This document shows, piece after piece, positions 2,222-2,403 of a stretch of DNA of 64,000 bases (positions are counted from its first letter, which is position 1; every line of letters starts with the position of its first letter). Source of the DNA: Escherichia coli (GTDB taxonomy: Bacteria; Pseudomonadota; Gammaproteobacteria; Enterobacterales; Enterobacteriaceae); assembly GCF_003334355.1 (NCBI RefSeq), contig NZ_QOWP01000005.1. The stretch is one strand, 5' to 3'. The translations under genes and the position numbers were made by a program. The notes under the pieces were generated by a model, which was given only the letters and a program-made list of their open reading frames with translations, ran no database searches and was not told the origin of the DNA.

Positions 2222-2403
2222 GTTGTCGGATGCGGCGTGAACGCCATATCCGCCCTGGGGTTCTGTACACTGTAGGCCTGATAAGACGCATTACGCGTCG
2301 CATCAGGCAACGGCTGTCGGATGCGGCGTGAACGCCTTATCCGACCTACGGTTCTGTTCACTGTAGGCCTGATAAGACGCATTACGCGTCGCATCAGGCA
2401 ACG
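2222..2403. repeat. BIME: two tandem ~93 bp units, each containing two REP palindromes
   Basis: Near-identical units tgtcggatgcggcgtgaacgcc[a/t]tatccg[c/a]cc...taggcctgataagacgcattacgcgtcgcatcaggcaacggc at 2223-2315 and 2316-2408. Confidence 0.85.

Follow-up and report, generated by a model that had tools for sequence, protein, structure and literature searches.

Between trmJ and iscR, the window analysed here (a single stretch of 64,000 nucleotides of Escherichia coli DNA) carries two nearly identical copies of a sequence that contains imperfect palindromes. The locus raises the question of which kind of element this repeat represents, how it varies among E. coli strains and whether the number of copies matters for the genes on either side. 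The evidence presented below indicates that the array very probably corresponds to a known BIME-2 of the trmJ-iscR intergenic region of E. coli, which is polymorphic and is present here as its two-unit allele.

Delimitation of the tandem array

Two head-to-tail units of 91 bp were located at positions 2224-2405 by repeat finding, with 86 of the 91 positions identical. Tandem Repeats Finder reported an array at 2224-2408 (period 91, 2.0 copies, 94% matches, zero indels, score 335), and a direct-repeat search returned copies at 2224-2314 and 2315-2405 with 95% identity, likewise without indels. The first copy, designated unit A, lies nearest the iscR promoter and the second, unit B, nearest trmJ. 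Five bases differ between them (A versus B): A/T at 2246, C/A at 2253, GG/AC at 2257-2258 and A/T at 2267. A preliminary description of this DNA had proposed a tandem duplicate of about 93 bp at 2222-2403, with units differing at only a few positions. The two-copy tandem is real and its internal periodicity was detected by both repeat finders, but its period is 91 bp and its limits are 2224 and 2405, and beside the four differences that had been quoted correctly a fifth had been missed.

Such a pair of units could in principle be a chance resemblance or an artefact of the assembly of the window. Tandem repeats are prone to assembly error, and the records of one laboratory lineage are discordant at this locus (see below). 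In random sequence, at least 86 matches out of 91 at a given offset are expected with a probability of about 2e-45, which argues against chance. Against an artefact speaks that hundreds of complete genomes, obtained independently, have the identical A+B allele (about 13%, from 26 of 196 sampled rows), and the A+B sequence was also read in strains 203740 and MC1061. Given its presence in hundreds of genomes, chance or artefact, to which we assign next to no probability, was excluded for the window array.

REP palindromes and linkers

On the plus strand, each unit begins with a 30-nt imperfect palindrome (GTCGGATGCGGCG-TGAA-CGCCTTATCCGAC), followed by CTAC and a 13-nt linker. Then come GTAG and a 33-nt imperfect palindrome (GCCTGATAAGACGC-ATTAC-GCGTCGCATCAGGC), from which a 7-nt linker leads to the next unit. 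The first palindrome is a y REP and the second a z2 REP in inverse orientation; the 13 nt connect them tail-to-tail within the unit, and the 7 nt connect the units head-to-head. Pattern matches and folds agree in this respect with the preliminary description, which had recognized two different REP palindromes in each unit.

In unit A, a degenerate y REP lies at 2225-2258 on the minus strand, with its palindrome at 2225-2254 and a box at 2255-2258 that reads CTGG and not CTAC. It is followed by the short tail-to-tail linker (2259-2271, 13 nt) and by the z2 REP at 2272-2308 on the plus strand (GTAG box at 2272-2275, palindrome at 2276-2308). The head-to-head linker AACGGCT (2309-2315, 7 nt) forms the unit junction. 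Unit B contains a y REP at 2316-2349 on the minus strand (palindrome at 2316-2345, box at 2346-2349 reading CTAC on the plus strand), a tail-to-tail linker of 13 nt at 2350-2362 and a z2 REP at 2363-2399 on the plus strand (GTAG box at 2363-2366, palindrome at 2367-2399). The linkers were read directly from the sequence, and both z2 REPs and the y REP of unit B were also recovered as inverted repeats. Across alleles the tail-to-tail linker is the most variable part, and the head-to-head linker occurs only in alleles with at least two units.

For the typing of the REPs, y and z2 search patterns following the published consensus were used. The z2 pattern matched with zero mismatches at both 2272-2308 and 2363-2399, and the unit-B y REP matched the y pattern with two mismatches, which form a compensating pair in the stem. 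For the y REP of unit A, which contains four of the five A/B differences, no match to the y consensus was found within three mismatches. The GTAG/CTAC boxes are intact in three of the four REPs (2272-2275, 2346-2349 and 2363-2366), the exception being the CTGG of the unit-A y REP. The y/z2 typing was cross-checked against the Rfam naRNA4 consensus, a y-z REP pair, and against a perfect y REP elsewhere in the window.

Folded as single-stranded DNA, each z2 REP reached -12.6 kcal/mol (z = -6) and the y REP of unit B -10 kcal/mol (z = -2.9), while the y REP of unit A, with -7.3 kcal/mol (z = -0.95), folded no better than shuffled sequence. All four palindromes fold with internal mismatches in the stem and their arms are 86% complementary. 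Taken with its CTGG box, the weak fold of the unit-A y REP leaves three sound hairpins and one decayed hairpin in the array. Of the four REP hairpins announced in the preliminary description, the two strong z2 hairpins and the good unit-B y hairpin could be retained, but not the unit-A y REP as an equal of these. The minus-strand RNA over the array gave -95.4 kcal/mol (z = -6.3), far below its shuffles. Across ten unit variants, stem positions are 97.5% paired and the linkers and loops vary; a covariation test on the same ten variants found a single covarying pair, a result without significance, as the observed score was reached in 106 of 500 shuffles.

Assignment to BIME-2

BIME-2 elements are defined as pairs of z2 and y REPs with a short linker, present as multiple tandem copies; at a given locus these are well conserved, and their number varies between strains (Ton-Hoang et al. 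2012, PMC3333891). The array of the window displays every sequence-level characteristic of this class: a y and an inverted z2 REP, the boxes, imperfect palindromes, short linkers and the tandem arrangement. BIME-1 (RIP/RIB) is similar in being an inverted REP pair of which one is of type y, but it is single-copy and has a long conserved L linker with an IHF site (Ton-Hoang et al. 2012, PMC3333891). The linkers in the window measure 13 and 7 nt, its unit is tandem, and the IHF consensus WATCAANNNNTTR has zero matches inside 2224-2405. With short linkers and no IHF site, BIME-1 (z1 with an IHF-binding L linker) was rejected.

The K-12 copy is listed as 'BIMEs2 2662088-2662353, 265 bp, <iscR-<yfhQ' in a Topo-seq study of W3110 (Sutormin et al. 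2019, PMC6379681, Table DS3). The window array has in common with this iscR-yfhQ (trmJ) BIME-2 the site, the flanks and the A and B units, as present in MG1655, DH10B and BL21-Gold, and both are extragenic tandems of y and z2 REP pairs with short linkers. They differ in that K-12 has three units and the window two, and in a C-to-T change at 2211 of the window. Both the BIME-2 element and its K-12 locus are already published; the window holds the two-unit allele.

In the K-12 copy, three gyrase cleavage sites were mapped in vivo with ciprofloxacin, six with rifampicin plus ciprofloxacin, zero with microcin B17 and four with oxolinic acid, and most BIME-2 entries in the same table have no gyrase cleavage sites (PMC6379681, Table DS3). 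Among REPs, those of type y are cleaved by gyrase far more frequently than z2 REPs, and BIME-2 gyrase signals rise when transcription is blocked with rifampicin, which points to transcription-independent strong gyrase sites (Sutormin et al. 2019, PMC6379681). These published data concern the three-unit K-12 allele. Beyond annotation the array matters little, as a textbook BIME-2 whose K-12 copy has already been tabulated with gyrase data. Searches of the literature on trmJ or iscR together with REP or Rho termination found nothing specific to the locus, and nothing on the trmJ-iscR locus was found in the RepRanger supplements, Qian 2015 or Ton-Hoang 2012.

A different identity is suggested by Rfam, in which the family naRNA4 (RF02564) matches 2275-2346 on the minus strand (that of the trmJ transcript) with 72.2 bits against a gathering score of 59.5. 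According to this match the array would encode an naRNA4-type RNA, noncoding and nucleoid-associated, that binds HU and contributes to condensing the chromosome. The match extends from the z2 REP of unit A through the head-to-head linker into the y REP of unit B and thus lies across the unit junction; the other four overlapping naRNA4 matches in the array are below the gathering score. Since this model amounts to a y-z REP pair, it would be matched by any BIME-2 junction, and a promoter-like site was not found within the array. Furthermore, deletion or overexpression of REP325/naRNA4 leaves the nucleoid volume unchanged and REP-REP contacts were unseen, as reported by laboratories that studied naRNA4 (Harris et al. 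2026 preprint). An RNA of this type is hardly credible at this locus, and the array is treated below as a BIME-2.

Flanking genes and the iscR promoter

The array is flanked by iscR (1559-2047, minus strand), the first gene of iscRSUA, which lies downstream of it, and by the upstream gene trmJ (2408-3148, minus strand), encoding the tRNA Cm32/Um32 2'-O-methyltransferase; beyond trmJ follows suhB (3267-4070, plus strand). All three were identified as ORFs and by RefSeq annotation, the gene names being those of RefSeq-annotated loci that are 99.8% identical, with the window-private base at 2211 as the only difference. As trmJ and iscR are both transcribed leftward, the array forms the trmJ 3' UTR and precedes the iscR promoter. 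This placement, also given in the preliminary description, was borne out by the ORFs, the RefSeq annotation and the IscR operators at 2131-2180.

A search for IscR type-1 operators, with the motif of the IscR literature, gave two adjacent matches on the minus strand (2131-2155 and 2156-2180) against zero expected. The start of iscR transcription is presumably near 2115, judged from the operator positions in the IscR literature and from a minus-strand hexamer pair, TTGACC-17-CAGACT. At 2224, the array edge is 44 bp beyond the distal operator. The 176 bp from the iscR start codon to the array are identical in all alleles read, including those with BoxC (see below), barring rare single-base differences, namely window position 2211 and one base in O157 strain F7349. 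The known iscR promoter elements are therefore all located outside the variable part.

The proximity of the array to the promoter leaves room for a direct role, in which the array regulates the iscR promoter from upstream (for example as a binding platform or a curved segment) and the number of units directly sets iscRSUA transcription. The 44 bp between array edge and distal operator would suit such a role, and gyrase acting at the array could alter local supercoiling. The invariance of the 176 bp in all alleles read, BoxC included and rare single bases excepted, argues against it, and the literature search found no report of such a role. We regard a direct part in the iscR promoter as very improbable; the BIME-2, being clear of the IscR operators and the core promoter, does not belong to iscR regulation proper.

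Position 2211 is T in the window and C in all other alleles read, and a 511-bp query of the locus found no 100% match among 5426 genomes. This T, about 95 bp upstream of the inferred iscR start, is either a SNP private to the window or an error of sequencing.

On the minus strand between trmJ and iscR no intrinsic terminator was found and none of the four hairpins is followed by a U run, so that the array was rejected as a Rho-independent terminator. A terminator-like hairpin with a T run (GCCCCTGCCCGGGGT TTTTTATTGT) was observed at 2069-2083 on the plus strand, where it lies antisense to the 5' UTR of iscR, shortly before the start codon. Three mechanically predicted ORFs run through the REP array, of 84 aa (2188-2442, minus strand), 46 aa (2191-2331, plus strand) and 206 aa (2321-2941, plus strand). 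A coding role for them was rejected, as no feature is annotated there in any RefSeq record examined. The array itself is unannotated in PGAP/RefSeq records, and the crossing ORFs (46-206 aa) are spurious and should not be called genes.

Copy-number alleles in E. coli

Allele-specific queries were used to survey the array in all 5426 complete genomes of E. coli, and 22 loci were read. One or two units are present in 3312 genomes combined. The counts at 80% coverage were 3312 and 3313 for the two queries, and overlapping matches were merged in these counts; one- and two-unit genomes could therefore not be separated in this way, and the frequency of two units was estimated from four systematic samples of rows. 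On that basis about 650-720 genomes (12-13%) have two units, with 887 as the upper bound, and the remainder of the 3312, about 2600-2650 genomes (about 49%), have one. Three units were found in 661 genomes (3973 minus 3312) and four in 13, counted as single-piece matches to a synthetic four-unit query; a five-unit allele was not found among the 5426 genomes. A further 1433 genomes (26%) have a BoxC element in place of the BIME. About seven genomes are unaccounted for, one of which is a poor assembly. The expectation of the preliminary description that the tandem copy number varies between strains is confirmed by this range of one to four units or BoxC.

The loci that were read show how the units combine. 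Unit A alone is present in SUISSEKPC3NDM5 and unit B alone in 1008S13. The allele A+B of the window also occurs in 203740 and MC1061, and B+B in LST200A. MG1655, USML2, DH10B, BL21-Gold, MIN11 and N921 are A+B+B, and TOP10 is A+B+B+B. Two-unit hybrids whose second unit is partly of a divergent type were read in F8111-1SC3 and H2. Single divergent units have lost both GTAG/CTAC boxes in ST131 and MRSN346647 and have kept them in 14EC029 and MRSN352231. The single unit of CT01 has a 10-nt insertion in the tail-to-tail linker, which indicates that this linker tolerates a change in length. Strain P276M was left out of the allele classes: its trmJ and suhB are frameshifted and fragmented, and it looks like a low-quality assembly.

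Three-unit arrays were also found in E. coli C, WG5 and NCTC122. In E. coli C, unit A and unit B enclose a B/A chimera, a middle unit with a B-type y REP and an A-type base at unit offset 44. This chimera could be the product of unequal crossing-over within an A+B array, or equally an older unit type. A search for A+A+B arrays returned as best matches the E. coli C-type arrays with the chimeric middle unit, and not A+A+B.

An outgroup scan was done with a 20-mer of the IscR operator against species-representative genomes. Escherichia albertii has one unit, with CTAC and GTAG intact and the same end of trmJ; eight other matches, in Aeromonas and unrelated taxa, were not used. Since E. albertii has a single unit, this is probably the ancestral state, and the multi-unit arrays and the BoxC allele are probably derived. 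Gains and losses of whole 91-bp units, the chimera included, would follow the pattern predicted by unequal recombination or replication slippage. The allele series is consistent with this model, which it does not prove. As a further route for BIME amplification, strand exchange by TnpA(REP) has been proposed from in vitro work (Ton-Hoang et al. 2012, PMC3333891).

The genomes closest to the window are AR_0369 and 21EVA (99.9%). Both are non-K-12, and a K-12 origin of the window was rejected on these best matches.

A BoxC allele at the same site

In the BoxC-type strains (O157:H7, 90-3040 and many more), an element of about 120 bp occupies exactly the BIME site, 2224-2407 of the window. The BoxC/TMECO intrastrand-triplex consensus of Holder et al. 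2015 is matched exactly within it, at 1734-1768 of the 90-3040 locus extract. In BoxC genomes trmJ is one codon shorter, encodes 245 aa and ends with a TGA stop. Like BIMEs, BoxC/PIT/TMECO elements are intergenic and linked to variability between strains, and at this site they form the alternative allele in 1433 of the 5426 genomes, but their sequence and predicted structure are unrelated to those of a BIME. No BoxC motif was found anywhere in the 64-kb window.

Possible roles of the array

A system suited to comparison is REP325/naRNA4 between yjdM and yjdN. It too is a tandem array of REP pairs between codirectional genes, located in the 3' UTR of the upstream gene, and the Rfam model built from it matches the trmJ-iscR array above threshold. 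REP325 stabilises the upstream yjdM mRNA, attenuates transcription into yjdN and causes partial, Rho-dependent termination (Harris et al. 2026 preprint). The two arrays differ in size and setting: REP325 has 12 hairpins and lies inside an operon, whereas the trmJ-iscR array has four and is followed by an independent IscR-regulated promoter.

On the trmJ transcript, the stop codon (2410-2408) and the first REP stem, that of the unit-B z2 REP starting at 2399, are separated by a spacer of 8 nt (2400-2407, minus strand), so that hairpins would begin 8 nt past the stop codon. By analogy with REP325, the hairpin cluster most likely blocks 3'-to-5' exonucleases and would thereby stabilise the trmJ mRNA. 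By the same analogy it most likely also imposes a partial, probably Rho-assisted, stop on read-through into the iscR promoter. In the summary of Liang et al. 2015 given in PMC12306157, REPs whose distance to the stop codon is under 16 nt reduce translation of the gene upstream. The first stem, 8 nt after the trmJ stop, falls within this distance, and the array may slightly lower TrmJ translation. We infer these RNA-level roles from the position of the array and from other REP arrays. Fragments of REP325 with two to four hairpins had no detectable Rho dependence (Harris et al. 2026 preprint), which suggests that the two-unit array may be a weak terminator. REP effects are also context dependent, and half-lives are not uniformly changed (Harris et al. 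2026 preprint).

With one unit in about half of the genomes and no BIME in 26%, the extra units are clearly dispensable. According to a rival proposal, the array is selectively neutral repeat DNA, a relic of the dispersal of REPs and BIMEs by the REP-associated transposase TnpA(REP), whose unit count drifts by slippage and which has no meaningful effect on trmJ, iscR or topology. The site tolerates one to four units or BoxC across E. coli, the y REP of unit A has decayed, the single units of the ST131 and MRSN346647 types lack both GTAG/CTAC boxes and the covariation in the stems is not significant, all of which fits neutrality. On the other hand, the K-12 allele is among the few BIME-2 arrays with several mapped gyrase sites, the stems remain 97.5% paired over the ten variants while linkers and loops vary, and the similarly placed REP325 measurably affects both of its neighbour genes (Harris et al. 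2026 preprint). Neutrality of the extra unit is plausible; for the array as a whole we consider it possible but rather doubtful.

Laboratory strains and value as a strain marker

The records of one laboratory lineage disagree in unit number: MC1061 has two, its descendant DH10B three and TOP10 four. Similarly, the BL21-Gold record has three units, while BL21(DE3) (CP081489), Rosetta2 and BL21-RIPL have four. Four units are also recorded for the K-12 derivatives XL1-Blue, XL10-Gold and Stbl4. Eight of the 13 four-unit records are from laboratory strains (BL21 and K-12 derivatives) with accessions within CP080620-CP083274, a narrow range that makes an assembly artefact possible. Four units occur in independent isolates as well, such as NCTC9080 and ML35. 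For the discordant lineage records, real instability is as likely as assembly error.

Unit number (one to four) or the exchange with BoxC might act as a heritable and reversible dial on the strain-specific level of TrmJ and of read-through or supercoiling at the iscRSUA promoter, and might thereby shift the set-point of Fe-S cluster homeostasis; the discord among MC1061, DH10B and TOP10 would in that case be real instability on the time scale of laboratory culture. This scenario as a whole is improbable. Should unit number tune trmJ or iscRSUA, the locus would illustrate, on a small scale, how REP arrays can generate regulatory diversity, as has already been proposed in the literature.

The use of the array as a strain marker, which had been suggested in the preliminary description, can be upheld in part. 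The 91-bp step offers a simple length polymorphism for PCR, with at least five alleles in E. coli. Identical unit counts recur in unrelated backgrounds, and the records within one lineage disagree, which makes the array unreliable as a lineage marker.

Other elements in the window

Two further REP sequences were noted in the window. A perfect y REP at 54190-54223 (minus strand) abuts an Rfam match to the sRNA ES036/CssrF at 54147-54189 (minus strand), and a y-like REP without CTAC box lies at 13601-13634 (plus strand). The iscRS stability element (RF01517), a known element, was found at full length between iscR and iscS (1320-1429, minus strand, 117 bits). Rfam matches above the gathering score were also obtained for GlmY (31018-31165, minus strand), ohsC (40363-40439, plus strand), rncO (43852-44066, minus strand) and AsrC (46849-47680, plus strand), as would be expected in this region of the E. 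coli chromosome.
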